19,148 nt of DNA. It comes from a virus. Lineage: Duplodnaviria > Heunggongvirae > Uroviricota > Caudoviricetes. Where the stretch lies: positions 1-19,148 of IMG/VR virus record IMGVR_UViG_2547132281_000015, one strand, 5' to 3'. Made by a program: the position numbers and the translations under genes. The notes under the pieces are model-generated. The model searched no databases, was not told the DNA's origin, and saw nothing but the letters and a program-made list of their open reading frames with translations. Position 1 is the first letter of the stretch. Each line of letters opens with the position of its first letter. Positions 1 to 19,148 of the stretch are shown in pieces.

Positions 1-376
1 TGGTATGCCGAAAGGGATGCTGAAATTGAGAATGAAAAGCTGCGCCGGGAAGTTGAAGAACTGCGGCAGGCCAGCGAGACAGATCTCCAGCCAGGGACTA
101 TTGAGTACGAACGCCATCGACTTACGCGTGCGCAGGCCGACGCACAGGAGCTGAAAAATGCCAGAGACTCCGCTGAAGTGGTGGAAACCGCATTCTGTAC
201 TTTCGTGCTGTCGCGGATCGCAGGTGAAATTGCCAGTATTCTCGACGGGATCCCCCTGTCGGTGCAGCGGCGTTTTCCGGAACTGGAAAACCGACATGTT
301 GATTTCCTGAAACGGGATATCATCAAAGCCATGAACAAAGCAGCCGCGCTGGATGAACTGATACCGGGGTTGCTGA

Positions 377-402
<26 letters not shown>
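1..402 (+). CDS. nu1: Terminase small subunit Nu1, C-terminal fragment (5' end lies outside the window)
   Basis: Frame 1 reads ...EIENEKLRREVEELRQASE...VVETAFCTFVLSRIAGEIASILDGIPLSVQRRFPELENRHVDFLKRDIIKAMNKAAALDELIPGLLSEYIEQSG then TAA at 400-402, matching the lambda Nu1 C-terminus as I recall it. Overlaps the start of A by 26 nt as in lambda. Confidence 0.85.
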
Positions 403-4083
<3,681 letters not shown>

Positions 4084-4103
<20 letters not shown>

Positions 4104-5403: not shown

Positions 5404-5412
5404 GGGATGTTT

Positions 5413-5745
5413 ATGACGAGCAAAGAAACCTTTACCCATTACCAGCCGCTGGGCAACAGTGACCCGGCACATACGGCAACCGCGCCCGGCGGATTGAGTG
5501 CGAAAGCGCCTGCAATGACCCCGCTGATGCTGGACACCTCCACCCGTAAGCTGGTTGCGTGGGATGGCACCACCGACGGTACTGCCGTTGGCATTCTGGC
5601 GGTTGATGCTGACCAGACCAGCACCACGCTGACGTTCTACAAGTCCGGCACGTTCCGTTATGAGGATGTGCTCTGGCCGGAGGCTGCCAGCGACGAGACG
5701 AAAAAACGGACCGCGTTTGCCGGAACGGCAATCAGCATCGTTTAA
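5413..5745 (+). CDS. D: Capsid decoration protein gpD (110 aa)
   Basis: [110 protein letters not shown], recognised as lambda gpD. Confidence 0.95.
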
Positions 5746-5762
5746 CCTTACCCTTCATCACT

Positions 5763-5787
5763 AAAGGCCGCCTGTGCGGCTTTTTTT
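5763..5787 (+). terminator. Hairpin plus T-run between D and E (partial intrinsic terminator or RNA-stability element)
   Basis: GCCGC (5767-5771), loop CTGT, GCGGC (5776-5780), extended by A/T pairs, followed by TTTTTTT at 5781-5787. Confidence 0.45.
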
Positions 5788-5800
5788 ACGGGATTTTTTT

Positions 5801-6826
5801 ATGTCGATGTACACAACCGCCCAGCTGCTGGCGGCAAATGAGCAGAAATTTAAGTTTGATCCGCTGTTTCTGCGTCTCTTTTTCCGTGAGAGCTATCCCT
5901 TCACCACGGAGAAAGTCTATCTCTCACAAATTCCGGGACTGGTAAACATGGCGCTGTACGTTTCGCCGATTGTTTCCGGTGAGGTTATCCGTTCCCGTGG
6001 CGGCTCCACCTCTGAATTTACGCCGGGATATGTCAAACCCAAGCATGAGGTGAATCCGCAGATGACCCTGCGTCGCCTGCCGGATGAAGATCCGCAGAAT
6101 CTGGCGGACCCGGCTTACCGCCGCCGTCGCATCATCATGCAGAACATGCGAGACGAAGAGCTGGCCATTGCTCAGGTCGAAGAGATGCAGGCAGTTTCTG
6201 CTGTGCTTAAGGGCAAATACACCATGACCGGTGAAGCCTTCGATCCGGTTGAGGTGGATATGGGCCGCAGTGCGGCGAACAACATCACACAGTCCGGCGG
6301 TACGGAGTGGAGCAAGCGTGACAAGTCCACGTATGACCCGACCGACGATATCGAAGCCTACGCGCTGAACGCCAGCGGTGTGGTGAATATCATCGTGTTT
6401 GATCCGAAAGGCTGGGCGCTGTTCCGTTCCTTCAAAGCCGTCAGGGAGAAGCTGGATACCCGTCGCGGCTCTAATTCCGAGCTGGAGACAGCGGTAAAAG
6501 ACCTGGGCGAAGCGGTGTCCTATAAGGGGATGTATGGCGATACGGCGATCGTCGTGTATTCCGGACAGTACGTGGAAAACGACGTCAAAAAGAACTTCCT
6601 GCCGGACAACACGATGGTGCTGGGGAACACTCAGGCACGCGGTCTGCGCACCTATGGCTGCATTCAGGATGCGGACGCACAGCGCGAAGGTATTAACGCC
6701 TCTGCCCGCTACCCGAAAAACTGGGTGACCACCGGCGATCCGGCGCGTGAGTTCACCATGATTCAGTCAGCACCGCTGATGCTGCTGGCTGACCCTGATG
6801 CGTTCGTGTCCGTACAACTGGCGTAA
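5801..6826 (+). CDS. E: Major capsid protein gpE (341 aa)
   Basis: ORF from the ATG at 5801 (MSMYTTAQLLAANEQKFKFDPLFLRLFFRESYPFTTEKVYLSQIPGLVNMALYVSP...), recognised as lambda gpE. The upstream in-frame extension from 5774 is rejected. Confidence 0.95.
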   Translation: MSMYTTAQLLAANEQKFKFDPLFLRLFFRESYPFTTEKVYLSQIPGLVNMALYVSPIVSGEVIRSRGGSTSEFTPGYVKPKHEVNPQMTLRRLPDEDPQNLADPAYRRRRIIMQNMRDEELAIAQVEEMQAVSAVLKGKYTMTGEAFDPVEVDMGRSAANNITQSGGTEWSKRDKSTYDPTDDIEAYALNASGVVNIIVFDPKGWALFRSFKAVREKLDTRRGSNSELETAVKDLGEAVSYKGMYGDTAIVVYSGQYVENDVKKNFLPDNTMVLGNTQARGLRTYGCIQDADAQREGINASARYPKNWVTTGDPAREFTMIQSAPLMLLADPDAFVSVQLA

Positions 6827-6867
6827 TCATGGCCCTTCGGGGCCATTTTCTCTCTGTGGAGGAGTCC

Positions 6868-7263
6868 ATGACGAAAGATGAACTGATTGCCCGTCTTCAG
6901 GTGCTGGGTGAGCAACTGAACCGTGATGTCAGCCTGACGGGGACGAAAGAAGAACTGGTGCTCCGTGTGGCAGAGCTGGAAGAGGAGCTTGATGACACGG
7001 ATGACGCTGCCGGTCAGGACACATCTGTCAGCCCGGAAAATGCGCTGACCGGACATGAAAATGAGGTGGTATCAGCGCAGCCGGATACCGTGATTGATAC
7101 GGCTGCTCTGGTCACGGTCGTGGCACTGGTGACGCTGCATACTGATGCACTTCACGCCACGCGGGATGAGCCTGTGGCATTTGTGCTGCCGGGAACGGCG
7201 TTCCGTGTCTCTGCCGGTGTGGCAGCTGAAATGACAGAGCGCGGCCTGGCCAGAATGCAATAA
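6868..7263 (+). CDS. FI: DNA-packaging protein FI (131 aa)
   Basis: MTKDELIARLQVLGEQLNRDVSLTGTKEELVLRVAELEEELDDTDD... with GGAGG 4 nt upstream of the ATG at 6868; matches lambda gpFI with a few substitutions relative to my recollection. Confidence 0.85.
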   Translation: MTKDELIARLQVLGEQLNRDVSLTGTKEELVLRVAELEEELDDTDDAAGQDTSVSPENALTGHENEVVSAQPDTVIDTAALVTVVALVTLHTDALHATRDEPVAFVLPGTAFRVSAGVAAEMTERGLARMQ

Positions 7264-7274
7264 CGGGAGGCGCT

Positions 7275-7628
7275 GTGGCTGATTTCGATAACCTGTTCGA
7301 TGCTGCCATTGCCCGCGCCGATGAAACGATACGCGGGTACATGGGAACGTCAGCCACCATGACATCCGGTGAGCAGTCCGGTGCTGTGATACGTGGTGTT
7401 TTTGATGACCCTGAAAATATCAGCTATGCCGGACAGGGCGTGCGCGTTGAAGGCTCCAGCCCGTCCCTGTTTGTCCGGACTGATGATGTGCGGCAGCTGC
7501 GGCGCGGCGACACGCTGACCATCGGTGAGGAAAACTTCTGGATAGACCGGATTTCGCCAGATGATGGCGGAAGCTGTCATCTCTGGCTTGGGCGGGGCGT
7601 ACCGCCTGCCGTTAACCGTCGCCGCTGA
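7275..7628 (+). CDS. FII: Head-tail connector protein FII (117 aa), GTG start
   Basis: 117-aa ORF (V/M)ADFDNLFDAAIARADETIRGYMGTSATMTSGEQSGAVIRGVFDDPENISYAGQGVRVEGSSPSLFVRTDDVRQLRRGDTLTIGEENFWIDRISPDDGGSCHLWLGRGVPPAVNRRR, recognised as lambda gpFII. Confidence 0.85.
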   Translation: MADFDNLFDAAIARADETIRGYMGTSATMTSGEQSGAVIRGVFDDPENISYAGQGVRVEGSSPSLFVRTDDVRQLRRGDTLTIGEENFWIDRISPDDGGSCHLWLGRGVPPAVNRRR

Positions 7629-8403
7629 AAGGGGGATGTATGGCCATAAAAGGTCTTGAGCAGGCCGTTGAAAACCTCAGCCGTATCAGCAGAACGGCGG
7701 TGCCCGGTGCCGCCGCAATGGCCATTAGTGCAGTTGTTACATAACTGAGTTTATGTAAGTCTTCATCATTCAGACGAGTGAGGGCTGGGACAGTAGCCAT
7801 GATGGCAGCCTCCTTGATCGGTGAAATACTTCCACCACCGGAAACGCCAATTTCGCTGGTGGTGAACTGAACGGGGTTGGCGTAACCGGTGATCAAGGAA
7901 ACCGGCGCATCTTTCGATGCCCCCGCCCAGCCCACCATAACTTTGATGTGAGCAAATGCGGACGATAAAAAAGACGCTGGCGCGTCATATATCGCCTTGA
8001 TCAATTCCAGGACGCCAATCCCGGCACCCGCTTTATAAGGTGCCTGAACAGTGTAACGTCCCGGAATGGCAGAATCAATGTGCTGGTGGTCCTTCACACT
8101 CAACAAAATCACGCCTGAATTTCCACAAAGGACTAAAGCACTCATGCGGGTAGTCTTTGCGAAGATAGATAACGCGCTGTGTTTCTGGTTCCCAACGAAT
8201 AACATGGACATAAAGCCCTCTTCCGTCACGAAACCAGCGGTTAAGTTCCCGCACAACTCGCCCCCCACAGTCAGGTAAAGTTCTCTGTGGTTACTTACAG
8301 CCAGGTGATTTGGTAATCTGCATTCATGCCGTAACAACAGGTGTTCAGCGACACTGACCACCAGCTGTTGCGACAAACGGTTATTTGCCGTTAAACTGTT
8401 CAT
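7612..8403 (-). CDS. Hypothetical early-right protein, 3' end disrupted at the rearrangement junction (native part about 7730-8403)
   Basis: 263-aa ORF whose ATG (8401-8403) overlaps the TGA of the upstream CII-like gene (ATGA coupling). Its last ~40 codons are read through the antisense of the lambda Z/FII sequence, so the true C-terminus is missing. No recognisable motif. Confidence 0.45.
   Translation of the reverse strand: MNSLTANNRLSQQLVVSVAEHLLLRHECRLPNHLAVSNHRELYLTVGGELCGNLTAGFVTEEGFMSMLFVGNQKHSALSIFAKTTRMSALVLCGNSGVILLSVKDHQHIDSAIPGRYTVQAPYKAGAGIGVLELIKAIYDAPASFLSSAFAHIKVMVGWAGASKDAPVSLITGYANPVQFTTSEIGVSGGGSISPIKEAAIMATVPALTRLNDEDLHKLSYVTTALMAIAAAPGTAVLLIRLRFSTACSRPFMAIHPPFSGDG
7640..7747 (+). 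pseudogene. Z: Tail gene Z remnant: first ~29 codons lambda-like, then divergence and stop after 35 codons
   Basis: MAIKGLEQAVENLSRISRTAVPGAAAMAI matches the lambda gpZ N-terminus (192 aa in lambda); the frame then reads SAVVTN and stops at TGA 7745-7747. No U, V, G, T, H... tail genes follow. Confidence 0.75.
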
Positions 8404-8963
8404 GCGTTAGTTTCTCCACAGACACAAAACGCCACGACGCCCGGAGCTGCACACTCGCGGGCGTCACTCTTTTCTGGAGCGCAAAAGATTTTGTAGACCA
8501 GTGCTGCATGCTCTTGGAGCTTCGAAATTGACAGATACAACTCATCATTAATTGCTGTCTGCTCGTGTGGCTCCACGACCCCATCTTCGATTGCCGAACG
8601 AATCTGCTTTGAGTAATTCCCGATCTGTTCGATGACTTCCAGCAGGCGCTGGTTTATATCGGCGTTCTCTACTTCCTCAATTTCAGGAAGCGATACGAAC
8701 ACCCCACCAGCAGACTGTGCGACAGCATCCGCAATGTAGTGAGTGCCAGCCGCGCGCTGTAAAACCATTGCCCATCCCAGCGGGAAAATCTGATCGCCAT
8801 CGGCACGAAGGCGGTTAAATAATGCGTTCTCTGTTACATCCAGCCAGTCAGCTGCTTCAGCGTAACCACCCGGCAACGCTGCGATAGTTTTTCTGACAGC
8901 TTTCACGTACCACTCAGGCTGTTTTTCTACTTTCCAGTGATACTTACCCACGGTTAGCCTCAT
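8400..8963 (-). CDS. CII-like early regulator (YdaT / phage CII family), tentative
   Basis: 187-aa ORF immediately downstream of the cro-like gene on the same strand, the position CII/YdaT occupies in Rac- and CP-933P-type prophages. Assignment rests on position, size and vague recollection of the family. Start uncertain (poor SD at 8963; alternative GTG four codons in). Confidence 0.5.
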   Translation of the reverse strand: MRLTVGKYHWKVEKQPEWYVKAVRKTIAALPGGYAEAADWLDVTENALFNRLRADGDQIFPLGWAMVLQRAAGTHYIADAVAQSAGGVFVSLPEIEEVENADINQRLLEVIEQIGNYSKQIRSAIEDGVVEPHEQTAINDELYLSISKLQEHAALVYKIFCAPEKSDARECAAPGVVAFCVCGETNA

Positions 8964-8994
8964 CGTTCTGTGGTTAAAAATTGAAGGTGTTCTG

Positions 8995-9195
8995 TTAATC
9001 TTTCGGATAGATATCCGGTCTTAAGTCAGATTTCGTAATTGCACCTGACGTGCATTGCTCAAGTTTTTTCGCCAGCACAAAACTGGCTTTTTTATAACCA
9101 TTGAAAACCAGCCGTAAGTAGCCAGGTGTTGAGCCAACTTTTCCGGCCAACTCGCCCTGCTGTTCTTTGGTTAAAGAGTCCCAATACGCTTTCAT
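8995..9195 (-). CDS. Cro-like HTH regulator (YdaS/Cro family, 66 aa)
   Basis: MKAYWDSLTKEQQGELAGKVGSTPGYLRLVFNGYKKASFVLAKKLEQCTSGAITKSDLRPDIYPKD; GGAGG about 10 nt upstream of the ATG at 9195; divergent from the cI-like gene. The longer 167-aa ORF to 9498 is rejected. Confidence 0.7.
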   Translation of the reverse strand: MKAYWDSLTKEQQGELAGKVGSTPGYLRLVFNGYKKASFVLAKKLEQCTSGAITKSDLRPDIYPKD

Positions 9196-9285
9196 ACAAT
9201 ATGTACCTCCGATATACATATTACATGATTGAAATGAACCTTCAAGATACTTGTACCTTATCGGTACAAAGGTTTTAATTTCGTT
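9196..9285. promoter_or_regulatory. Divergent cro/cI control region (pR-like and pRM-like promoters with operator-like palindromes)
   Basis: Operator-like 19-mers ATGTACCTCCGATATACAT (9201-9219) and TTGTACCTTATCGGTACAA (9251-9269, 7-bp perfect inverted arms). Candidate pRM: -35 TTGTAC 9251-9256, 17-nt spacer, -10 TTTAAT 9274-9279, ending 6 nt before the cI ATG (possibly leaderless). Candidate pR on the minus strand: -10 TAATAT at 9218-9223, -35 TTGAAG at 9240-9245. Confidence 0.5.
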
Positions 9286-9960
9286 ATGAAAACAATCCAT
9301 GACATCCGGCGGTCTAACGCCAGAAAACTGAGAGATGGTGTTGGCGGGAATTCTTCCTTTGCCACCATGATTGATCGCGAGCCAACCCAGACCAGCAGGT
9401 TTATGGGAGATGGTGCTACTAAAAATATCGGTGACAGCATGGCGCGGCACATCGAAAAATGTTTCGACCTGCCTGTCGGATGGCTTGATCAAGAACACCA
9501 GACCACGAACATCACAAAAAAACCTGATGTTTCAATCACTAACAAACAAATAACGTTAGTCCCTGTCATATCATGGGTACAGGCCGGAGCATGGAAAGAA
9601 GTTGGCTATTCTGAGGTTGATTTGAGCACAGCAGAAACTTACCCCTGCCCTGTACCCTGTGGCGAAATGACTTATATCTTGCGGGTGATTGGTGATTCAA
9701 TGATTGATGAGTACCGCCCTGGAGACATGATTTTTGTTGATCCCGAAGTCCCTGCCTGCCACGGTGACGACGTTATTGCATTGATGCACGATACAGGCGA
9801 AACCACCTTCAAGCGATTGATAGAAGATGGAACACAGCGTTATCTCAAAGCATTAAACCCAAACTGGCCTGAGCCTTACATTAAGATTAACGGTAATTGC
9901 TCTATAATTGGTACAGTGATTTTCTCGGGAAAACCAAGAAGATACACAATAAAGGCCTAA
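9286..9960 (+). CDS. cI-like prophage repressor with C-terminal LexA/S24 autopeptidase domain (224 aa)
   Basis: C-terminal half carries the S24 signature: candidate Ala-Gly cleavage site (VQAGAW), Ser nucleophile in GDSM, Lys in TFKRL. Divergent from the cro-like gene. Confidence 0.85.
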   Translation: MKTIHDIRRSNARKLRDGVGGNSSFATMIDREPTQTSRFMGDGATKNIGDSMARHIEKCFDLPVGWLDQEHQTTNITKKPDVSITNKQITLVPVISWVQAGAWKEVGYSEVDLSTAETYPCPVPCGEMTYILRVIGDSMIDEYRPGDMIFVDPEVPACHGDDVIALMHDTGETTFKRLIEDGTQRYLKALNPNWPEPYIKINGNCSIIGTVIFSGKPRRYTIKA

Positions 9961-9971
9961 TCAATATTTAT

Positions 9972-9996
9972 GAACCTGCTTCGGCAGGTTTTTTTA
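9972..9996 (+). terminator. Intrinsic terminator of the cI-like gene
   Basis: GAACCTGC (9972-9979), loop TTCG, GCAGGTT (9984-9990), then a run of T to 9996; begins 12 nt after the cI stop. Confidence 0.75.
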
Positions 9997-9999
9997 TAC

Positions 10000-10027
10000 T
10001 TGACAATGTACCCATGAGATACATAAT
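10000..10027 (+). promoter_or_regulatory. pL-like early-left promoter with embedded operator-like site
   Basis: -35 TTGACA (10000-10005), 16-nt spacer, -10 CATAAT (10022-10027). The spacer and -10 contain ATGTACCCATGAGATACAT (10006-10024), matching the 9201-9219 motif at 15 of 19 positions. Confidence 0.55.
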
Positions 10028-10445
10028 GTATCCAAAAGAAACATGAGGCAGGCAAAATTCAAACAAAATTTGGTTGTAACACGGCGTATGGCACATGCGT
10101 CGTTAGCGGTCTGGGGACGTTAAAGGGGACAATCCACTTCTTGCTCGGGCAAACAAACCAGGTAGCCGGAATGTGCAAGTCAATGATGATGCTGATAAGA
10201 CGCCTAACCAGCGTGGCGATCCGGTTTGACGCCTGGGAAGAGACCAGGGTGCAACGATGAGGGCATTTATAGAGCCGCGACAAAGTGTGGTGCCGTAACT
10301 GGCTAAGTGCTCTCAGCGTTGTGGTAATCCGCGAAATGGCGCGGCGGTAAGTATGGCGGGGTTACTCTTTCCCCGTTGAGGACACCGGATTGTCAGGTTG
10401 ACCATACGCCTGAGTGACAACCCCACCACAACAGCCACTGCTTTG

Positions 10446-10491
10446 GCGGTACCAGTTTGTACACTTGCTTCCGGCTGGTACCGCTCTTTTT
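10446..10491 (+). terminator. Intrinsic terminator (or nut/boxA-like element) at the end of the early-left leader
   Basis: Perfect 10-bp inverted repeat GCGGTACCAG (10446-10455) / CTGGTACCGC (10475-10484) followed by TCTTTTTAC. The CGCTCTTTTTACAA stretch also resembles boxA (CGCTCTTA / GCTCTTTAACAA). Confidence 0.55.
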
Positions 10492-10628
10492 ACAAAATAG
10501 AGAAGAGCATCACCGGACGACGGGCTCATAACCCAATCCATCCGGGCGGCTGCCACCGCAGGTGTTCTTCTCTGTTTTGTGGAGAAACCAACCGACCTTG
10601 CAGGGTCGATATGATGAGGAGCAGCAAA

Positions 10629-10991
10629 ATGGCTAGCGAACGCAGTACTGATGTGCAGGCATTTATCGGGGAGCTGGACGGCGGCGTATTTGAAACCAAA
10701 ATCGGCGCAGTTCTCAGTGAAGTCGCTTCCGGTGTGATGAACACGAAAACCAAAGGTAAGGTCTCACTCAACCTGGAAATCGAACCATTTGATGAGAACC
10801 GTGTGAAAATCAAACACAAACTCTCATATGTTCGCCCGACTAACCGCGGGAAAATTTCCGAAGAAGACACCACCGAAACGCTGATGTATGTCAATCGCGG
10901 TGGTCGCCTGACTATTCTGCAGGAAGACCAGGGACAATTACTGACTCTTGCCGGTGAACCTGACGGAAAACTACGCGCAGCAGGTCATTAA
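10629..10991 (+). CDS. yfdP: YfdP-like early-left protein (120 aa)
   Basis: ATG at 10629 preceded by GAGGAG (10616-10621) gives 120 aa, the size of E. coli K-12 CPS-53 YfdP, and it is followed by YfdQ/R/S/T-like genes in K-12 order. The upstream in-frame extension from 10398 is treated as leader. Confidence 0.6.
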   Translation: MASERSTDVQAFIGELDGGVFETKIGAVLSEVASGVMNTKTKGKVSLNLEIEPFDENRVKIKHKLSYVRPTNRGKISEEDTTETLMYVNRGGRLTILQEDQGQLLTLAGEPDGKLRAAGH

Positions 10992-11056
10992 TATCGTTCT
11001 TAATTAACTGATTATTTATCTCATCACTGAATATCTTTATATAGTGAGGACTTATT

Positions 11057-11881
11057 ATGTCTCAGAACTTAGACGCAACCGCAATTAATCAAATCCATGC
11101 CCTTATTTCTGCTCAGGGTGTTAATGAAATTATCAGTAATATTGGTGCCGATGCTGTGGCATTGCCTGAGAATTTCCGCATTCATGATCTGGAAAAATTT
11201 AATTTAAATCGCTTCCGTTTCCGTGGTGCGCTTTCCACTGCCAGCATCGATGACTTTACCCGTTATTCTAAAGATCTTGCAGATGAAGGCACCCGCTGCT
11301 TTATCGATGCTGATAATATGCGTGCCGTCAGTGTACTTAACCTGGGTACTATTGATGAACCAGGTCACGCAGATAACACCGCCACTCTCAAACTGAAAAA
11401 GACAGCACCGTTCTCTGCCCTGTTGTCTGTTAACGGCGAGCGTAACTCCCAGAAGTCACTGGCAGAATGGATTGAAGACTGGGCCGACTACCTTGTGGGC
11501 TTTGATGCTAATGGTGACGCTATTCAGGCAACAAAAGCGGCTGCGGCAGTCCGTAAAATCACGATTGAAGCAAACCAGACCGCTGATTTTGAAGATAATG
11601 ACTTCAGCGGCAAACGCTCCCTGATGGAGTCTGTCGAAGCGAAGACCAAAGACATTATGCCAGTGGCATTTGAATTTAAATGCGTTCCGTTTGAAGGTCT
11701 GAAAGAACGTCCGTTTAAATTACGCCTCAGCATTATCACTGGCGATCGTCCTGTACTGGTTCTGCGCATTATTCAGCTGGAGGCGGTGCAGGAAGAAATG
11801 GCTAACGAATTTCGTGATCTGCTTGTTGAGAAATTCAAGGACAGCAAAGTAGAAACCTTTATTGGTACTTTCACCGCCTGA
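11057..11881 (+). CDS. yfdQ: YfdQ-like protein (DUF2303 family, 274 aa)
   Basis: 274-aa ORF with GAGGA SD, same length as K-12 YfdQ and the same position in a yfdP-Q-R-S-T array. Family assignment from recollection. Confidence 0.65.
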
Positions 11882-11893
11882 TTTCATTACTGC

Positions 11894-11915
11894 AAATGCC
11901 CCTGCGGGGGCATTT
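11894..11915 (+). terminator. GC-rich hairpin between yfdQ-like and yfdR-like (possible attenuator)
   Basis: AAATGCCCC (11894-11902), loop TGCG, GGGGCATTT (11907-11915); no clean T-run afterwards. Confidence 0.35.
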
Positions 11916-12008
11916 ATGGAAACGTAATTTACTCAATAATCGCCGGATGGTGAGGGATTCTTTTTACCAGAATTCAGCGCGGTGCAGCGCATATACGTGG
12001 AGAACAAA

Positions 12009-12545
12009 ATGTCATTTATCAAAACTTTTTCTGGGAAGCATTTTTATTATGACAGGATAAATAAAGACGACATCGATATTAACGATATCGCGGTTTCCCT
12101 TTCAAATATCTGTCGCTTTGCCGGTCATCTTTCGCACTTCTACAGCGTCGCCCAACATGCGGTTCTTTGCAGCCAGCTGGTGCCGCAGGAATTTGCTTTT
12201 GAAGCGTTAATGCATGATGCAACAGAAGCGTATTGCCAGGACATTCCCGCACCACTGAAACGCCTTCTTCCTGACTATAAACGGATGGAAGAAAAAATAG
12301 ACGCCGTAATCCGTGAGAAATACGGGTTACCCCCGGTTATGAGTACACCCGTGAAATATGCCGATCTCATCATGCTGGCAACCGAACGCCGCGATCTCGG
12401 GCTTGATGATGGCTCTTTCTGGCCTGTACTGGAAGGCATCCCGGCAACAGAGATGTTCAACGTGATTCCACTGGCACCGGGCCATGCCTACGGGATGTTT
12501 ATGGAACGTTTTAACGATTTATCGGAGTTACGCAAATGCGCATGA
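12009..12545 (+). CDS. yfdR: HD-domain phosphohydrolase, YfdR-like 5'-deoxynucleotidase (178 aa)
   Basis: ATG at 12009 with GGAGA SD gives 178 aa (the K-12 YfdR length). HD signature: His in AGHLSHFYSVAQHAV and HD in LMHDATEAY. Stop overlaps the next gene by 10 nt. Confidence 0.75.
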   Translation: MSFIKTFSGKHFYYDRINKDDIDINDIAVSLSNICRFAGHLSHFYSVAQHAVLCSQLVPQEFAFEALMHDATEAYCQDIPAPLKRLLPDYKRMEEKIDAVIREKYGLPPVMSTPVKYADLIMLATERRDLGLDDGSFWPVLEGIPATEMFNVIPLAPGHAYGMFMERFNDLSELRKCA

Positions 12546-12898
12546 ATGTTTTCGAAATGGAAGGGTTTCTTCGCGGGAAATGTGTACCGCGAGATCTGAA
12601 AGTGAACGAAACAAATGCTGAGTACCTGGTACGTAAATTCGACGCGCTTGAAGCTAAATGTGCGGCACTGGAAAACAAAATAATACCAGTGTCAACTGAA
12701 CTGCCACCAGCAAATGAAAGTGTTCTGTTATTTGATGCTAATGGAGAAGGCTGGCTGATTGGCTGGCGTTCTCTCTGGTACACCTGGGGACAAAAAGAAA
12801 CCGGAGAATGGCAGTGGACATTTCAGGTCGGGGACCTTGAAAACTTCAATATCACTCACTGGGCAGTAATGCCCAAAGCGCCGGAGGCTGGAGCATAA
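12536..12898 (+). CDS. yfdS: YfdS-like protein (120 aa)
   Basis: 120-aa ORF, the K-12 YfdS length; start overlaps the yfdR-like stop, stop overlaps the next start (TAATG). Confidence 0.6.
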   Translation: MRMNVFEMEGFLRGKCVPRDLKVNETNAEYLVRKFDALEAKCAALENKIIPVSTELPPANESVLLFDANGEGWLIGWRSLWYTWGQKETGEWQWTFQVGDLENFNITHWAVMPKAPEAGA

Positions 12899-13518
12899 TG
12901 ACCACATTTACCAATAAAGAACTGATTAAAGAAATCAAAGAACGAATCAGCAGCCTAGAGGTTCGAGACGATATTGAGCGCCGTGCTTATGAAATTGCTC
13001 TGGCATCGCTGGAAGAGGAGCCGGTGGCATGGCTGCATTCAGACAATGGCTTAGGTATTCCGGCAATAACCAGGAGCAAAAACATTGCTGACAGTTGGTT
13101 ATCAATGGGCTGGTATGTTCAGCCGCTATATATAGCCAAGCCAGTACTGGTGGTGCCAGATGCTCGTCCGTCTTTAAATAATGGCATAGTCGGTTTTGAT
13201 GAAGGCTGGAACGCCTGCCGCGCCACCATGCTTCATGGTGCCAAACCTGTAAGCCAGACTTACAAGTTGAACAAGCTGTCGGGCAACTCTCCGGTAACTC
13301 AGGATGGTTGGATAAGCTGTAGTGAGCGAATGCCGAACGATAAACAGTATGTTTGGTGTTGGGGTAAGTCTTACGGCTGGACTGAGTGCGATACCTTCGA
13401 AGGGTATTACGATTGGTCGAGAAACAAATGGTGGGCAGTTACTGACGATGGGGAAGAACCGGCATCGAAAGTAACCCACTGGATGCCGCTACCGGAGCCA
13501 CCGCAGGAGGTGAAGTAA
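12898..13518 (+). CDS. YfdT-like protein with C-terminal Trp/Cys-rich DUF551-type region (206 aa)
   Basis: 206-aa ORF translationally coupled at both ends; C-terminus ...DKQYVWCWGKSYGWTECDTFEGYYDWSRNKWWAVTDDGEEPASKVTHWMPLPEPP resembles DUF551 ends. About twice the size of the K-12 yfdT product (101 aa as I recall). Confidence 0.5.
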   Translation: MTTFTNKELIKEIKERISSLEVRDDIERRAYEIALASLEEEPVAWLHSDNGLGIPAITRSKNIADSWLSMGWYVQPLYIAKPVLVVPDARPSLNNGIVGFDEGWNACRATMLHGAKPVSQTYKLNKLSGNSPVTQDGWISCSERMPNDKQYVWCWGKSYGWTECDTFEGYYDWSRNKWWAVTDDGEEPASKVTHWMPLPEPPQEVK

Positions 13519-13712
13519 TGAACAACTTAATGACAACTAAACAAGTCGCCGACTTCTGTGGCGTTTCAGTATCGACCGTTCTTCGCTGGAACAGCGTAAA
13601 CAGGAGAACTGGCCAGAAATACAGGCCTGACTTTCCAGATCCTGATATTAAATCCTGCCCAAATAAATGGGCATCACGCAAGATATACAGGTTTGCTGGA
13701 GTTATTGAGTGA
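13518..13712 (+). CDS. AlpA/Xis-like small HTH protein (candidate excisionase, 64 aa)
   Basis: MNNLMTTKQVADFCGVSVSTVLRWNSVNRRTGQKYRPDFPDPDIKSCPNKWASRKIYRFAGVIE; HTH followed by a basic/aromatic tail, as in AlpA/TorI-type excisionases. Last gene of the early-left operon, on the integrase side. Confidence 0.6.
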   Translation: MNNLMTTKQVADFCGVSVSTVLRWNSVNRRTGQKYRPDFPDPDIKSCPNKWASRKIYRFAGVIE

Positions 13713-13747
13713 TGGGTATTAGCTCATATCAGAACTAATACCCATCA
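13710..13747. terminator. Strong hairpin at the convergence point of the early-left operon and the SIR2 gene (candidate bidirectional terminator)
   Basis: T-GATGGGTATTAG (13710-13722), 12-nt loop, CTAATACCCATC-A (13735-13747): 13-bp perfect stem overlapping the xis-like stop codon. No T-run on either side. Confidence 0.45.
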
Positions 13748-13914
13748 ATGACACAGAGCCAACTACCCACCCTGTGTCAGGGGCTAACTTTTAACACCAT
13801 AATTCACCGCTAGATAAAAACTGTATTGCATTGCACGAGCGGCGCAGCATTATCAGTTAGAGTGTCTTTACCTTGTTAGGCTCCACAGTTCGCACTGTCC
13901 AACGCCTGTCACTT

Positions 13915-16900
13915 TCACACGCTGCGCCTTCGAGAATATTCATTTAATCGCTGATAACGAACATCTTGCTCCAGTTGTGGAGCAGCTTGAACAATTTGAA
14001 GCAAGCATTGCCCCAACTCTCGAGGCCCCCAGTGTTGTTCGGCAATCACGGCATTCAGCAGGGATAGAGCGTCCGCAGGATATCGGCTGCAAATATCTGA
14101 TTCTAGCAAAAGGCGAACGTCGTAGCTAAGGTGTTCGAGCGGTTGCAGCCAGTCCTGCACCACTGCCAAAGCCGCCGGAAATTCACCTCGGGCAGCAATC
14201 ACCATACGAGTCAACGATTCGGATATGCGTGGGGTGGCCAAGTTGCGGGACTTTGGCCAAACCTGTTGCCAAAATGGCTGGACACGATTTTTCCAATACT
14301 CCTCGCGCTGATCGCCCGCACCTTCAAGTGCCTGGTATAACGCCTGCGCGGCTACCTCCAGACCTTCTTGTGGAAGAGCACTAATTGCCGTTCGGAACTC
14401 CTCCACGGTATATCCCTCGGTAGGGCCCAGAGCTGCATAAGTCAGGAAAATAGCGAATTGCTGCCGGTGCTCGCCAAGATCAGAATAGTGATTGGCGCTC
14501 TCCAAAAAATCTGACTTGAAAGCTATCAGCAACGGTTCATACAGGCGTGGCGACCAGAGGAAGCCTTCCCACACAGCTTTTGCTTCGACGGGATTACTCC
14601 AAGCAAACAAGGGCAATAGATACTGTTCGGTCCAAGGTCGATCTACGCGAAAAAATGCGATCAGCCGCGACCCCAGCAACACCCGACCATGGCGGAATAG
14701 CTCTATCTGTACATTACACAATTTGGTGAAAAGTGTTTTCAATTCAACAGGAAGCAAATCATTGTCATTCGGGTTCTGTTTGAACCATAGGGTGATCAGT
14801 GATTGCGTGACATGCCCAATGGGATGATTGATCGCCGTAGAAACAGGATCATAGGTCTCAATTCCGTTTCGAATGGTGCTAGACTCTGGGCTTGTTTCTA
14901 TCATCAGAACCCGACGACAAAGGGCCAGTAGAATCTCCTCGTGGCAGAGGATGGTCTTCGAAGCCTCCTCCATCCACCAAGTGACAGCGTGGGAAATCTC
15001 CTGAAGTACTGCGTCAGGCATGTCAAGCACCAACGGTGCGGCGTACCGCCACGAACGCAAAATCATCCCTGGTTCAGCCCAAGTCTGCAGAGCTTCACGC
15101 CACCGACCAACAGGCCACACATCATCTTGTGATAGTTTACGTAACGCATACAGACTGTGAAAAAAGCGCGTACGGCAAACATCACTCCAAGTGTCCTCAT
15201 AGAAAGGCAGTCTTTCTGGCATAGGCTTTGCGAGCCATTGCACTAATTCCTGCCACTTACGGGGCGCAATGTCGACATCTATACTCTCCTCGAAGCCTGG
15301 ATCACCGGTTCCGCTCATCCAGTGAGAGAATTCATCACGCTCGTTGGTTGCCAGTTGCCATTTTGGGTATGCTGTGGATATTTCCGTCAAACGTGTAGCC
15401 GCAGACTCTCCCAAAACAAGGCCCGCTCCCCTGAGCTTCGCTAGACACAACCAGACGGAATGAGCCACCAAATAATGCCACCTGTCTGCTTCCAAATTAT
15501 CCTCGTACATCTCGCGCGGAGGCCCTGCCAAGATAGCAGTTTCCAGACGCTCTTGTGCAATTCCTGTCAGATGTCGTCCCTGCAAAACAAACAGTCTGAA
15601 TACCTCTCGCCGAGTATCCGTGGCCCACAACCACCATGAACCGTCCTCTAACAACCAATTAACCCACCGCTCAGGTGGTATGCAGTTGTCTTGGCTTGCG
15701 GCAAACAGTGCCAGACGTTTGAAGGTGGGATATGGCAACTCAAACCAATTCTGAGCAATGCGCGAGGCCTGATCGCTGTCTTTGGCTCGAACGGCTAACC
15801 ACGAATCCCGAAGTAATTCAATCAGGCTCACCCAATCGCGGAACCCCCGGTTCTGCCAGTGCGGAGTGATGGACGGCAAATCCCAATGCGAGCGGTCGTG
15901 ACGATCGTCGGACTCTCCCAACTCCCGCAACAAGTCCAGTGCATCACGCAACAACTGCTGAAAATCTTCCAACAGGTATGGCAAGGACGATTTCCATGAC
16001 TCGTCAGCAAGGTCGAACAGGGTTGAACGTACGTAATCAGCAGTCAGCACCAGCTCCCAATCCACCAATTGCTTGATTCGCAAGGGTTCATCAGTGCTGC
16101 TCGAATCGTCTTCACTATAGCGAAACGGCCGCCTCAACATAACCTTGGGAGAAAGCAACCCGCGTAACTCCAAGCGCAATGTAGTCGTCAAGCCTTCATT
16201 CTTTAAGCGGTTTTGCCAACGATACAAATCCAGGTTCTGCAATGGCGATTTCACACGACCACTAAGCAGAAGCCGCCATAAAGTAGACATAGGTGGACCA
16301 GGAATAGCCAGGGGGGAATGCAAGAGAATTTCATCTAACTCAGAAGTCTTACGCTCCCGCATCAGTGCTGCTAAGCGATCTAGTTCGCTCTCAATCAGAA
16401 ACATCCAACGGTCGTGTATTTGTCCGCCGCGTTCAGCAATCCATATGATCAACCTAGGGTCGCCCAGATAACGAACTAGCCAACGGGCTATATGGGACAT
16501 TACGTCATCCCATTTGCTAGCACTGACACATCCAGAAACCAGCGACATCTGCGGGGCCAGCTCATAGGGCGCTGGACGCTGAACCAGACTGAATCGGAGT
16601 TTCGGGTCAATTTCGACATGCGGAGATACACAAAAGCGTGGCAGATCGCTGTATTTAAATCGTTCGTCCGAGAAAGCTTTCAATAACCAATCCAGCGGCG
16701 GTGCAGGATTGAGTTCCGCAAAGCGTTTTGCTGGTAAACCTGATTTATCTGACAAGGCCCACAACATCCGACCAACGAAATCGTCCTGACGAGTGCTGTC
16801 CTGCGGGCGGGCCAGAGCATGTTTGACGACTATAGCCTCTTTGCCCTGTATACCATCTCGATAAGTATCTGCCCAAGCGTGCAACGTTTGATGCAGCACT

Positions 16901-17742
16901 GAATGATCAGTGGAGCCCGCCGGTACGGTGTAAAGGATAGGAGTGACCCCTTTGGCCTCCCACTCGATGGCTTTCCGGTGCTCCTGCCCCGGCTCACACT
17001 CCCCCAGTGCCCATACTTGTGGTGTGACTTCACCGAGCCTCCGATCTGCTGCAAGCGCATCCATCATGTAGCGCAGTACCGGGTCGTTGATGCTGTAGCC
17101 AACGAAGCAGACCACATAGTTACGAAATAACTCACTCACAAAGCGAGCTGCCCAACGCTCAGTGAGATAAGCCAAGCCAAAGTCACCGCTGGTAACAACC
17201 AGACGATTCAGGGCAGTATCATCCGCCTTTTCCGGTAACAGCCCATGCAGGTATACAAGTCCATCCCAGCGGCTGTTTTTTGGAATTGGCAGCATCGGCG
17301 CTACATAGGCCTGAAAAGCCTGGCCTGTACGTTTAGCTGCCACATGAAAGAGACGGTCAAAGTTGGTAGTGACCAATCGAAGGGCACCCTCGCGGCTACG
17401 GGCTAAACGTAACAGCGCCGCCTGAGTATCAATAGCGCCCCTACGACGGAGCTTTGGCTTAAGGGCTTTTTCCAACGCGCGTCGGACGGCTATACGCTGC
17501 CCTGGTAAGCGCCGTTCCAGCAAATCTAATGTGCCGTCAAATTGCCCACGCTCGAAAACCTCACGCTCAATTTCTGAAAGTGTTGTTCCGTTCCTCTGGT
17601 AAATTAGTTCTACCAACCCTTTGAAACCAGGTAAACCAGCAGGGTAGGAAATGCCTGCTCCACAGAAGAACACAACGCGCCCTTCCTCGTGCGCCTGCAA
17701 AAGCTCATCAGGAATATCAGGGCCGTTGGTAATGAATTGCAT
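13915..17742 (-). CDS. SIR2-like (sirtuin/NADase) domain protein, 1275 aa; candidate single-gene anti-phage defence protein (DSR-like)
   Basis: N-terminal ~300 aa carry SIR2-type motifs: FFCGAGISYP (GAG, res 28-30), VTTNFD (Asn127/Asp129), VYLHGLL (His166), VVTSGDFG, FVGYSINDP. GGAGG 9 nt upstream of the ATG at 17742. The remaining ~950 aa is W/L/R-rich with no P-loop. Confidence 0.8.
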   Translation of the reverse strand: MQFITNGPDIPDELLQAHEEGRVVFFCGAGISYPAGLPGFKGLVELIYQRNGTTLSEIEREVFERGQFDGTLDLLERRLPGQRIAVRRALEKALKPKLRRRGAIDTQAALLRLARSREGALRLVTTNFDRLFHVAAKRTGQAFQAYVAPMLPIPKNSRWDGLVYLHGLLPEKADDTALNRLVVTSGDFGLAYLTERWAARFVSELFRNYVVCFVGYSINDPVLRYMMDALAADRRLGEVTPQVWALGECEPGQEHRKAIEWEAKGVTPILYTVPAGSTDHSVLHQTLHAWADTYRDGIQGKEAIVVKHALARPQDSTRQDDFVGRMLWALSDKSGLPAKRFAELNPAPPLDWLLKAFSDERFKYSDLPRFCVSPHVEIDPKLRFSLVQRPAPYELAPQMSLVSGCVSASKWDDVMSHIARWLVRYLGDPRLIIWIAERGGQIHDRWMFLIESELDRLAALMRERKTSELDEILLHSPLAIPGPPMSTLWRLLLSGRVKSPLQNLDLYRWQNRLKNEGLTTTLRLELRGLLSPKVMLRRPFRYSEDDSSSTDEPLRIKQLVDWELVLTADYVRSTLFDLADESWKSSLPYLLEDFQQLLRDALDLLRELGESDDRHDRSHWDLPSITPHWQNRGFRDWVSLIELLRDSWLAVRAKDSDQASRIAQNWFELPYPTFKRLALFAASQDNCIPPERWVNWLLEDGSWWLWATDTRREVFRLFVLQGRHLTGIAQERLETAILAGPPREMYEDNLEADRWHYLVAHSVWLCLAKLRGAGLVLGESAATRLTEISTAYPKWQLATNERDEFSHWMSGTGDPGFEESIDVDIAPRKWQELVQWLAKPMPERLPFYEDTWSDVCRTRFFHSLYALRKLSQDDVWPVGRWREALQTWAEPGMILRSWRYAAPLVLDMPDAVLQEISHAVTWWMEEASKTILCHEEILLALCRRVLMIETSPESSTIRNGIETYDPVSTAINHPIGHVTQSLITLWFKQNPNDNDLLPVELKTLFTKLCNVQIELFRHGRVLLGSRLIAFFRVDRPWTEQYLLPLFAWSNPVEAKAVWEGFLWSPRLYEPLLIAFKSDFLESANHYSDLGEHRQQFAIFLTYAALGPTEGYTVEEFRTAISALPQEGLEVAAQALYQALEGAGDQREEYWKNRVQPFWQQVWPKSRNLATPRISESLTRMVIAARGEFPAALAVVQDWLQPLEHLSYDVRLLLESDICSRYPADALSLLNAVIAEQHWGPRELGQCLLQIVQAAPQLEQDVRYQRLNEYSRRRSV

Positions 17743-17924
17743 TCCTTTTCCTCCTATCCAATGTGCACGTTCATTCGAGTAAATGAAGGCAAGGGGTTAC
17801 ATCTTATTATACCGACCGTGCAAATCCGGCTTCCTAGCAAGCTACTTTACTTGCCAACTCATAATGTCCGAACTCCGAACAAAGCGGACTGCTAGATTTG
17901 ATTGCGTTCTAGCTACGCAAAATA
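17743..17924 (-). promoter_or_regulatory. Integrase-SIR2 intergenic region with candidate own promoter for the SIR2 gene
   Basis: Perfect -10 TATAAT on the minus strand (plus-strand 17806-17811), about 64 nt upstream of the SIR2 ATG; no good -35 at 17-nt spacing. Confidence 0.3.
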
Positions 17925-19148
17925 TCATTTCGAGCCTGAACGAGTACAAGTAACAATCGATTCAACTCTCTCCCACCATGCCTGGTAGGCTTTACGCTGT
18001 TCTTCTAGATAATCACTCTTGTCATAAACTTGCCATACACCTGGCAGTTTATGACCGAGCATTATTTCAGCAATATGAGGCGCAGTAAGATCAGAAAAGT
18101 TTGTTCGTGCTGTTCGTCTCAAATCATGAAGAGACCAGTGAGGAAATTGATACCCCAAACGCCGCCATGCGTACTGCATTAAATTGTAAGGCAGCGACTG
18201 CAATGATGTCCGACCAACTGGTTCCCTGCTTCCTTCCTTAGTAAAAAGCATATCGGAACCGTTGTTCATAGAGATAACGTATTTTATAAGCTCTTCAACC
18301 GGTTCAATAATGGGCCGCTTTAGCGGTTCGCCTGTTATATCCCCTGTCTTATGTCGTTCTGGTGGTACAGTCCATATTTTATTAATGAAATCAAAATCGT
18401 CCACCTTGGCAGTAATTAGCTCTGAACTACGGCAACCAAAATGCAGCAATAGTTTAATGAAGGCCCGGTATTTAGGAACCATTCGAGAACCATCGATCGC
18501 AGCATAAAGGATTTTAATTTCATCATGTGTCAGAAACCGTTTCTTCTGACCTTTACGGATATCCATATCTTTACCCGTGATATCCGACAGCGGGCGAGTT
18601 TCAATGAGCTTTCTCTTATACGCCCAGACATGGGCCTGCTTTGCGTTAATTAGCAATCGGTCTGCTATTGCTGGAGTCTTAGTGCTAAGAGGCTCCAGGA
18701 CTTCTAACCAATCATGCAATGTAGCTGCATCGTGAGGGATATTCCCGATTTTAGAGAACAGGTGCAGCTCAAACGAGCGGAGTATCTGTTCAGAACCTTT
18801 TTTATTTTTTACACAATATGCTTCATACCAAGCACGGATCACAGATTCTACCGTCATGGCTTCAGTAGCTTTACGTTTTTCTGCCAGCTTGACCAATCGT
18901 GGATTGCGGTTTGACTCGAGTTCACCACGAAGACGGATAACTTCTTCTCTGGCCTCTTTTAGTCCAGTTGCCGGGTAAGTTCCGATATCAAGACGCTCAC
19001 CTTTCCCCGCCCACTGATAACGATATTGGAACACTACGCGACCTTTCGGTGATACTCTAACAGACAGACCATCACGATCGGATTTAACCAAAACCTTATC
19101 ACGTTCCTTTCCAACGACTGAACGCAACCACGCATCAGACAGCGCCAT
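17925..19148 (-). CDS. Tyrosine recombinase / phage integrase, P4/CP4-57 (IntA/IntS) type, 407 aa
   Basis: Complete ORF whose ATG is the last three bases of the window (minus strand). C-terminal catalytic region HDLRRTARTNF...LGHKLPGVWQVYDKSDYLEEQRKAYQAWWERVE has the H-x-x-R and terminal Tyr pattern of P4-type integrases; N-terminus has the arm-binding (DUF4102-like) look. Confidence 0.9.
   Translation of the reverse strand: MALSDAWLRSVVGKERDKVLVKSDRDGLSVRVSPKGRVVFQYRYQWAGKGERLDIGTYPATGLKEAREEVIRLRGELESNRNPRLVKLAEKRKATEAMTVESVIRAWYEAYCVKNKKGSEQILRSFELHLFSKIGNIPHDAATLHDWLEVLEPLSTKTPAIADRLLINAKQAHVWAYKRKLIETRPLSDITGKDMDIRKGQKKRFLTHDEIKILYAAIDGSRMVPKYRAFIKLLLHFGCRSSELITAKVDDFDFINKIWTVPPERHKTGDITGEPLKRPIIEPVEELIKYVISMNNGSDMLFTKEGSREPVGRTSLQSLPYNLMQYAWRRLGYQFPHWSLHDLRRTARTNFSDLTAPHIAEIMLGHKLPGVWQVYDKSDYLEEQRKAYQAWWERVESIVTCTRSGSK

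Follow-up and report, generated by a model that had tools for sequence, protein, structure and literature searches.

The DSR1 family of defence-associated sirtuins is reportedly attributed to Gao et al. 2020. In Escherichia coli, the characterised example is EcDsr1 (WP_029488749.1, from strain NCTC9112), which defends against some Drexlerviridae phages and is triggered by a Drexlerviridae major capsid protein (MCP). The ZL19 MCP was the unique EcDsr1 activator in a screen of 73 genes, co-expression of MCP and EcDsr1 resulted in NADase-dependent cell death, and toxicity was abolished once the NADase domain was disrupted (PMC13581612). NARP3 counters DSR1 defence by restoring NAD+, as observed with an Ecdsr1 construct (PMC13464706). 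The dsr1 gene of ECOR17 is active from a plasmid when accompanied by 300 bp of upstream DNA; together with the native upstream region, it blocks T4 devoid of nrdC.5 (PMC9391042). In Bacillus subtilis, a DSR1 inhibited phi29, the NAD+ dip was transient, and no culture collapse was observed (bioRxiv 10.1101/2021.12.14.472415). The outcome differs between reports, being cell death in one case, a transient NAD+ dip in the other.

The window analysed in this work is the whole 19,148-nucleotide stretch of viral DNA corresponding to the IMG/VR record IMGVR_UViG_2547132281_000015. The features of interest are collected in Table 1. The dsr1 ORF starts with ATG, and its translation, checked against the ORF list, is free of internal stops. 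At the DNA level the gene is 100% identical, nucleotide by nucleotide, to the RefSeq dsr1 of E. coli TW14425, encoding WP_001159683.1; the exact protein carries the NCBI name Dsr1, and is present on 203 contigs. The protein matches the PADLOC Dsr1 model PDLC02183 from end to end (2733.6 bits, residues 1-1275 of 1275), a second PADLOC Dsr1 model at 647.3 bits, and the curated Dsr1 equivalog of NCBIfam, NF041818, at 2057.3 bits with the model fully covered (1-1263 of 1263), the cutoff being 1400 bits. A third PADLOC Dsr1 model covers only residues 4-220, within the SIR2 part, at 40 bits. Identity with the tested EcDsr1 extends to 1274 of 1275 residues, and the two proteins are equal in length (1275 aa). 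The sole difference resides at the SIR2/sensor boundary, at residue 302, which is Lys in WP_029488749.1 and Glu in the protein described here. Glu is the family consensus at this position, and is retained by each of 56 relatives with 74-82% identity. Judged by its sequence, this is the E. coli dsr1 known from earlier work, not a new family. The preliminary description of this DNA had left undecided whether the protein belonged to a described DSR family or to a new one. The first option holds, in the strictest form: the gene is DSR1 itself.

Table 1. Features of the dsr1 locus, with positions given along the window.
Feature	Position	Strand	Basis or remarks
dsr1 coding sequence, Dsr1 defence-associated sirtuin	13915..17742	minus	1275 aa + stop; ORF list and PADLOC/NCBIfam matches
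N-terminal SIR2 domain, residues 1-300	16843..17742	minus	Pfam SIR2_2 and motif check
C-terminal sensor, residues 301-1275, alpha-helical repeat (solenoid)	13918..16842	minus	AlphaFold2 model and PMC13581612
dsr1-specific cargo cassette, ~4.1 kb	13763..17879		No blastn counterpart in siblings integrated at this chromosomal site
Cassette-specific dsr1 upstream region	17743..17879	minus	Script: GGAGG 17754-17750, perfect TATAAT 17811-17806
Prophage tyrosine integrase, upstream of and co-directional with dsr1	17925..19148	minus	RefSeq; PHROG 1 (E 3.8e-75); NCBIfam integrase-domain matches
64-aa HTH ORF, possible excisionase, last gene of the early-left operon, facing dsr1	13518..13712	+	Pfam HTH_17
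Pair of hairpins on the early-operon side of the cassette	13710..13782		Repeat search and terminator scan

The effector side of the protein is typical of SIR2 enzymes. Pfam SIR2_2 matches residues 123-269 far beyond chance, with 81.3 bits where the cutoff is 24.5 (E 9.3e-23). All the motifs previously quoted as a SIR2 signature within the first ~300 residues were retrieved by script at the expected places, namely GAG at 28-30, TTNFD at 125-129 (Asn127, Asp129), VYLHGLL at 163-169 (His166) and GYSIND at 215-220. In the same way, the reported lack of a P-loop is borne out by the absence of any Walker A motif in the whole protein. Across 45 relatives sharing 32-51% identity, conservation of the Asn, Asp, His and GAG columns is 90% or higher. 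His166 lines up with His146 in KomC, a SIR2 NADase with solved structure, which has been deposited also as an H146N mutant. The SIR2 domain could be imagined to be a protein deacylase or an ADP-ribosyltransferase, with a macromolecule as its target, rather than a hydrolase of bulk NAD+, and the profile does match, though weakly, the sirtuin deacetylases SIRT2/3 and Hst2 over the NAD-binding GAG region. However, the best SIR2-profile matches are to defence NADases of the SIR2_2 type, as KomC, ThsA and DSR2, and both NAD+ depletion (bioRxiv 10.1101/2021.12.14.472415) and rescue by an NAD+-rebuilding pathway (PMC13464706) have been published. A macromolecular substrate is in our opinion very improbable. 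Hydrolysis of NAD+ is the preferred reading and, by analogy with the published EcDsr1, NADase-dependent toxicity and NAD+ loss plausibly extend to the E302 allele.

The C-terminal 975 residues are rich in Trp (4.4%), Leu (14.2%) and Arg (8.4%), as had been noted by eye, and none of the Pfam families matches residues 301-1275 at E<=0.1, in keeping with the previous remark that no motif could be placed beyond the SIR2 part. The preliminary description had proposed a profile search of the protein and a structure prediction of this region. The former returned the significant SIR2_2 hit and the end-to-end PADLOC Dsr1 match reported above, the latter a confident alpha-solenoid. The AlphaFold2 model is almost wholly helical (pLDDT 88.7, pTM 0.82); an earlier model, based on a shallow alignment, had a pLDDT of 64.4 and generic Foldseek matches. 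Foldseek comparison of the good model to PDB entries up to 2026-04-08, a set without the SeAvs7 entries, retrieved karyopherin, PP2A-A and other HEAT/ARM solenoids (TM 0.16-0.25), thus generic matches only. Searches of the PDB at the sequence level, by using either the single protein or a 45-sequence profile, gave matches confined to SIR2 domains. By phmmer, the sensor has 2766 matches among 1.84 billion representatives, and the best 150 of the 2766 all have the length and layout of Dsr1. Eight sensor relatives of atypical length were scanned against Pfam. Seven of them are truncated or extended SIR2_2 proteins; the remaining one, P0165, has no SIR2 match, and its sensor part gives only a THAP match below threshold. 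The C-terminal region had been indicated as the likely phage sensor, and this agrees with the published view of the long C-terminal region of EcDsr1 as a sensor, reported to be homologous to that of Avs7 (PMC13581612, Nature 2026). It had also been regarded as a domain of unknown specificity, and as the part of the protein most likely to be new. This view is not supported, since the region is already described in print as a sensor of the Avs7 type, with a phage major capsid protein as trigger.

The gene is prophage cargo, as initially suggested, and fills a variable slot beside the integrase of a lambdoid prophage. Its neighbours are the integrase and phage early genes, according to RefSeq annotation and PHROG matches. 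The edges of the cassette were set by blastn comparison to prophages which lack dsr1. Homology stops at 13762 and restarts at 17880 in two of them (L003 and L004), and stops at 13724 and restarts at 17943 in a third one (L005). The cassette has a GC content of 0.516, versus 0.446 of the integrase and 0.472 of the early genes. A repeat search found no direct repeats on its flanks that would set it apart as a separate mobile unit. The variable slot that it fills has the integrase on one side and the early-left operon on the other, in a lambdoid prophage adjoining yjjG. Of 5426 E. coli genomes, 700 carry the integrase family, which adjoins yjjG in all cases inspected. At the opposite edge, the 64-aa ORF falls within a block conserved in sibling prophages. 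Its HTH_17 match (22.6 bits) is under the cutoff of 27, and the ORF is tentatively taken as a candidate excisionase. Of the two hairpins found next to it, one is formed by a 16-bp inverted repeat (13710-13725/13732-13747, 94% complementary), while in the other, terminator-like, a T-run comes after a GC-rich stem (13770-13782, + strand). Both are putative terminators, which would part convergent transcripts. Upstream of dsr1, GGAGG is a strong ribosome-binding site. A consensus scan of the same region detected no canonical sigma-70 -35/-10 pair, and the TATAAT hexamer at 17811-17806 may mark a putative dsr1 promoter.

The dsr1 gene is present in 76 of the 5426 complete E. coli genomes, and in 67 of these 76 is at least 99% identical; in one genome it is interrupted by IS1203. 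The EcDsr1 gene is likewise integrase-adjacent in a prophage, and the int-dsr1 module is found also in a deposited genome of a Stx2c-converting phage. The prophage in the window is rearranged: tail, ash and DUF551 genes are truncated, and a strain-specific junction occurs at ~7726. Such rearrangements, together with the IS1203-split copy and the lack of a canonical promoter upstream, could be taken to indicate that dsr1 is decaying along with a defective prophage that carries it as a passenger, and is unexpressed or non-functional in this strain. Yet, the ORF is intact, and hardly varies in the large majority of the genomes hosting it, the consensus residue is found at the sole position differing from the tested protein, and the strong ribosome-binding site has been kept, as has a perfect -10 sequence. 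The module resides also in the Stx2c-converting phage, and decay of dsr1 seems very unlikely.

A joint account, in which dsr1 is the cargo of a prophage slot and works by a capsid-triggered NADase mechanism, is very probably correct. In the mechanism proposed the lysogen would make Dsr1 from the upstream region of the gene itself, and the ~975-residue alpha-solenoid sensor would bind the major capsid protein of the infecting phage, as reported for the protein differing by one residue. Capsid binding would in turn switch on the N-terminal SIR2 domain (Asn127, Asp129, His166), and NAD+ would be hydrolysed. Phages may oppose the process, T4 nrdC.5 and the NAD+-rebuilding pathway of NARP3 being published examples of countermeasures. 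Dsr1 senses a capsid protein of HK97 fold, and its own prophage has one of the lambda-E type (window 5801-6826), which raises the question of self-triggering.

The fate of the infected cell may be conceived in a different way. Dsr1 might protect without killing, in that a transient fall of NAD+ stalls the phage and the host recovers, a response distinct from classical abortive infection. The B. subtilis data, in which NAD+ recovered and phi29 was inhibited without culture collapse (bioRxiv 10.1101/2021.12.14.472415), support this possibility, and have been repeated in a review. In contrast, the E. coli protein which differs by one residue gave NADase-dependent cell death on MCP co-expression (PMC13581612). 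The DSR1 protein tested in B. subtilis may have another C-terminal region, because the third PADLOC Dsr1 model matches the SIR2 part only. Protection without killing is in our view rather improbable for the protein described here, and NADase-dependent death following capsid recognition is preferred.

The slot hosts other genes in sibling prophages. In place of dsr1, L003 carries a gene for a 331-aa protein, L005 a gene for a 239-aa protein, and L004 a pair of genes encoding proteins of 81 and 436 aa, all unannotated. The accessions of these proteins are WP_000653746.1, the pair WP_015740443.1 and WP_000551783.1, and WP_000040218.1. None of these alternative cargo genes belongs to a PADLOC or Pfam family, and they are ruled out as known defence genes. 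In lambdoid prophages residing at the yjjG site, the slot flanked by the integrase and the probable excisionase might be a dedicated hotspot for defence genes, a possibility that we consider open to serious doubt. If true, the genes replacing dsr1 in the siblings would be undescribed anti-phage genes. The scientific gain from the dsr1 gene is little, as it is already in RefSeq, PADLOC and NCBIfam, and the trigger and the NADase requirement of its near-twin have been published in 2026. On the side of annotation the outcome is positive, since both the defence sirtuin and its prophage-cargo setting had been recognised correctly from sequence alone. The value of the analysis is mostly contextual: the boundaries of a 4.1-kb cassette have been set, and about 700 E. 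coli genomes share the integrase family. The three genomes lacking dsr1 that were inspected, in which the cargo differs and is mostly unannotated, provide a short list of candidate defence genes.

The SIR2_2-type NADase effector of Dsr1 is shared by ThsA, SIR2-HerA, SIR2-pAgo and Avs5. These systems need a further component, which is ThsB TIR with a SLOG domain for Thoeris, and HerA, pAgo or a STAND NTPase for the others. Neither Dsr1 nor the window contains any of them. As to Thoeris, the match to ThsA models is weak (E 3.2e-5) and confined to residues 13-230 in the SIR2 part, and no TIR gene lies within the window. SIR2-HerA and SIR2-pAgo are rejected for the absence of an adjacent HerA ATPase or pAgo gene, neither of which appears in the annotation of the surrounding 36 kb or among the neighbours scanned with PADLOC. 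Avs5 and other SIR2-STAND proteins are similarly rejected, as the protein has no Walker A motif and no NTPase Pfam domain, and no Avs model is among the PADLOC matches. The claim that there is no partner gene nearby is supported by the annotation and by the PADLOC scan, in which, a trivial HTH match apart, no partner defence gene was found among the nine neighbouring ORFs. With the Dsr1 models matched and no partner gene around, the stand-alone DSR-type architecture proposed for the locus, in place of Thoeris, SIR2-HerA, SIR2-pAgo or Avs, is the correct one.

DSR2 of B. subtilis 29R (8WKT, 8K98 and others) is, like Dsr1, a single protein with an N-terminal SIR2 NADase. It is reported to have, similarly, a long helical C-terminal sensor which binds a phage structural protein, but the trigger is the tail tube protein for DSR2, the capsid protein for Dsr1. 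No PADLOC Dsr2 match was found at E<=1, DSR2 chains in the PDB match only residues 17-68 of the profile, the region of the NAD-binding motif (E about 2e-3), and DSR2 is absent from the top 50 fold matches of the sensor model. Avs7 (SeAvs7 of Salmonella enterica; 9N00, 9N01, 9YIX) is reported to have a homologous bilobed sensor, and to fall in the same class for its capsid-protein trigger (PMC13581612). Avs7 is however a STAND NTPase which recruits EF-Tu, and the SeAvs7 effector is a Cap4-type nuclease, whereas Dsr1 is devoid of a P-loop and has SIR2 as effector. EcDsr1 combines the SIR2 domain and the solenoid sensor in the same architecture, and differs from the protein described in this work at residue 302 only.

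The gene under study is dsr1, and its product is the known defence-associated sirtuin Dsr1; it represents no new family or variant. PADLOC's Dsr1 model PDLC02183 aligns to the protein from the first residue to the last (1-1275 of 1275; 2733.6 bits). A second PADLOC Dsr1 model (647.3 bits) and NF041818, the curated NCBI equivalog for 'anti-phage defense-associated sirtuin Dsr1' (2057.3 bits, cutoff 1400), recognize it as well. The exact protein sequence is public under the name Dsr1, and is found on 203 contigs. At the DNA level the gene is 100% identical to dsr1 of E. coli TW14425 (WP_001159683.1), and the entire 19,148-base window matches the TW14425 chromosome at 99.995%. Within a set of 5426 complete E. 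coli genomes dsr1 resides in 76, with an identity of at least 99% in 67 of them. A single difference separates the window protein from EcDsr1 of E. coli NCTC9112 (WP_029488749.1), the accession used in a 2026 Nature study of phage-protein sensors (PMC13581612): residue 302 is Lys in EcDsr1, Glu in the window protein. Since Glu302 is invariant in 56 relatives at 74-82% identity, the window protein carries the consensus state at this position.

The ORF is uninterrupted, and includes 1275 codons plus stop with an ATG start. All the SIR2 motifs quoted in the preliminary description were retrieved by script exactly where they had been read: GAG at 28-30, TTNFD at 125-129 (Asn127, Asp129), VYLHGLL at 163-169 (His166), GYSIND at 215-220. 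The SIR2 call is confirmed by a Pfam SIR2_2 match on residues 123-269 (E 9.3e-23; 81.3 bits, cutoff 24.5). NAD-binding and catalytic residues of the domain are at least 90% conserved among 45 relatives at only 32-51% identity, and His166 lines up with His146 in the solved SIR2 NADase KomC, of which the H146N mutant has also been deposited. The P-loop, described as missing, is indeed so, as no Walker A motif was found by script in the whole 1275-aa protein. Full-length matches to Dsr1 models and the absence of a partner gene support the earlier assignment to stand-alone DSR-type sirtuins: HerA, pAgo, TIR, SLOG or STAND genes were found near dsr1 neither in the annotation of the matching genome region, nor in a PADLOC scan of neighbouring ORFs. 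Of the features that define DSR1, the full-length family match, the SIR2 domain with its NAD-binding and catalytic residues, the single-gene layout and the near-identity to an experimentally validated member are all present. DSR2, Thoeris, SIR2-HerA, SIR2-pAgo and Avs5 were considered as alternative families and ruled out, because domains or partner genes are missing. A natural example of dsr1 inactivation is found in E. coli CUVET18-789 (NZ_CP115312.1 3969379-3974519), where IS1203, an IS3-family element, splits the gene into pieces annotated as 'hypothetical protein' and 'SIR2 family protein'.

As had been noticed, Trp (4.4%), Leu (14.2%) and Arg (8.4%) are abundant in the region downstream of the SIR2 domain, whose conserved positions are mostly tryptophans. 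Residues 301-1275 match zero Pfam families even at E<=0.1. With a diverse alignment, AlphaFold2 gave a confident model of this 975-residue C-terminal region (pLDDT 88.7, pTM 0.82), which predicts alpha-helical repeats nearly throughout, plus one small beta element. Relatives of this sensor region number 2766 among 1.84 billion representatives, and the best 150 of the 2766 all have the Dsr1 layout; among eight relatives of atypical length, SIR2_2 was detected in seven, and the eighth (P0165) has no SIR2 match. A 45-sequence profile retrieved from PDB sequences SIR2 domains only, DSR2 being matched solely over residues 17-68, and Foldseek aligned the model only to generic HEAT/ARM solenoids (karyopherin beta2, exportins, PP2A-A; TM 0.16-0.25), the PDB compared extending up to 8 April 2026 and not including SeAvs7, the Avs7 of Salmonella enterica (9N00, 9N01, 9YIX). 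The homology of the Dsr1 sensor to that of the STAND protein Avs7 is taken here from PMC13581612. The C-terminal domain, proposed as the part most likely to be new, is thus already published as an Avs7-type sensor.

Coordinates of dsr1, of features of the resident prophage, and of genes at the same slot in sibling prophages
Feature	Coordinates	Strand	Basis
dsr1, 1275 aa	13915-17742	-
Terminase, portal, protease, decoration, major capsid genes	377-7628		PHROGs and RefSeq annotation
Lambda-E-type major capsid protein	5801-6826	+	phrog_6020
C4 antisense RNA and isrK matches	7855-7942 and 7967-8043	- (both)	Rfam
cI-like repressor	9286-9960		PHROGs and RefSeq annotation
cro-like and YmfL genes			PHROGs and RefSeq annotation
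yfdP-S early genes	10629-12898		PHROGs and RefSeq annotation
64-aa ORF, N-terminal helix-turn-helix	13518-13712	+	Pfam HTH_17, 22.6 bits, under cutoff 27
Tyrosine integrase	17925-19148		PHROGs and RefSeq annotation
L003 slot gene, 331 aa	L003 8591-9586	-	annotated hypothetical
L004 slot genes, 81 and 436 aa	L004 8396-8641 and 8634-9944	-	annotated hypothetical
L005 slot gene, 239 aa	L005 8511-9230	+	annotated hypothetical

Phage head, repressor, early and integrase genes surround dsr1, which bears out its reading as prophage cargo. In the matching genome yjjG abuts the integrase; dsr1 lies directly downstream of the integrase, in the same direction, and is convergent with the early-left operon, whose last ORF, conserved in sibling prophages and left without annotation in RefSeq, is possibly an excisionase. 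A deposited genome of an Stx2c-converting phage contains the int-dsr1-early module at 99.6% identity. Of the 5426 genomes, TW14425 alone has the head-gene block (1-7725) fused to the int-dsr1-immunity block (7726-19148); truncated tail and ash genes reside either side of the junction (about 7640-8145, breakpoint near 7726), and head genes are in inverted order with respect to the lambda-type map. The prophage is a strain-specific rearranged mosaic, and is probably defective. Matches to the C4 antisense RNA (RF01695, 82.3 bits) and to the Hfq-binding RNA isrK (RF01394, 64.2 bits), both over the Rfam gathering score, overlap or adjoin the truncated 'ash family' gene; the pair looks to be left over from a P1/P7-type c4/ant immunity module.

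Three prophages that occupy the same site but lack dsr1 are homologous to the window up to 13762 and again from 17880, and the dsr1-specific insert therefore spans about 13763-17879. Its GC content is 0.516, that of the integrase 0.446. The integrase family is present in 700 of the complete genomes, dsr1 in 76. The genes hosted by the siblings at this position match no significant PADLOC or Pfam family, and are candidates for as yet undescribed genes of defence or lysogenic conversion. The variable slot, set between the putative excisionase and the integrase, may be a defence hotspot. The slot and its unannotated occupants, which merit testing, are the only lead worth keeping, though peripheral to dsr1. 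The ATG of dsr1 is preceded by GGAGG at 7 nt and by a perfect TATAAT at 63 nt; promoter scan and sequence reading recognized no -35 element. At the boundary between early operon and cassette lie a 16-bp inverted repeat, near perfect and with a loop of 6 nt (within 13710-13747), and a GC-rich hairpin ahead of a T-run (13770-13782, + strand). The two hairpins are plausible terminators between convergent transcripts.

In E. coli, EcDsr1 gives protection from a few phages of the Drexlerviridae; of 73 phage ZL19 genes put through a barcoded screen, only that of the major capsid protein activated EcDsr1-mediated cell death, and this toxicity was abolished by disrupting the NADase domain (PMC13581612). 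NARP3, a phage pathway rebuilding NAD+, counters DSR1 defence by restoring NAD+, as observed with an expressed Ecdsr1 construct (PMC13464706). A dsr1 homologue from ECOR17, on a clone that included 300 bp of its native upstream sequence, blocked T4 lacking nrdC.5, and infection was restored by supplying nrdC.5 (PMC9391042). Combining the present tests with the results on the near-identical EcDsr1, in the window allele the solenoid sensor would bind a capsid protein, the SIR2 NADase would be released, and the ensuing NAD+ collapse would abort infection. The reported trigger of Dsr1 being a major capsid protein of phages, the question arises of whether, and how, Dsr1 copes with the lambda-E-type capsid protein encoded by the resident prophage; the phage relatives of this capsid protein, among the matches listed, are lambdoid, Stx and other E-type phages.

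In B. subtilis, a DSR1 tested there caused only a transient loss of NAD+ and no culture collapse (bioRxiv 10.1101/2021.12.14.472415). A third PADLOC Dsr1 model (PDLC04166) matches the window protein in the SIR2 part only (residues 4-220, 40 bits), which suggests that proteins whose C-terminal regions are unrelated share the name 'DSR1'. A different C-terminal region may account for the B. subtilis-tested DSR1 behaving unlike EcDsr1.
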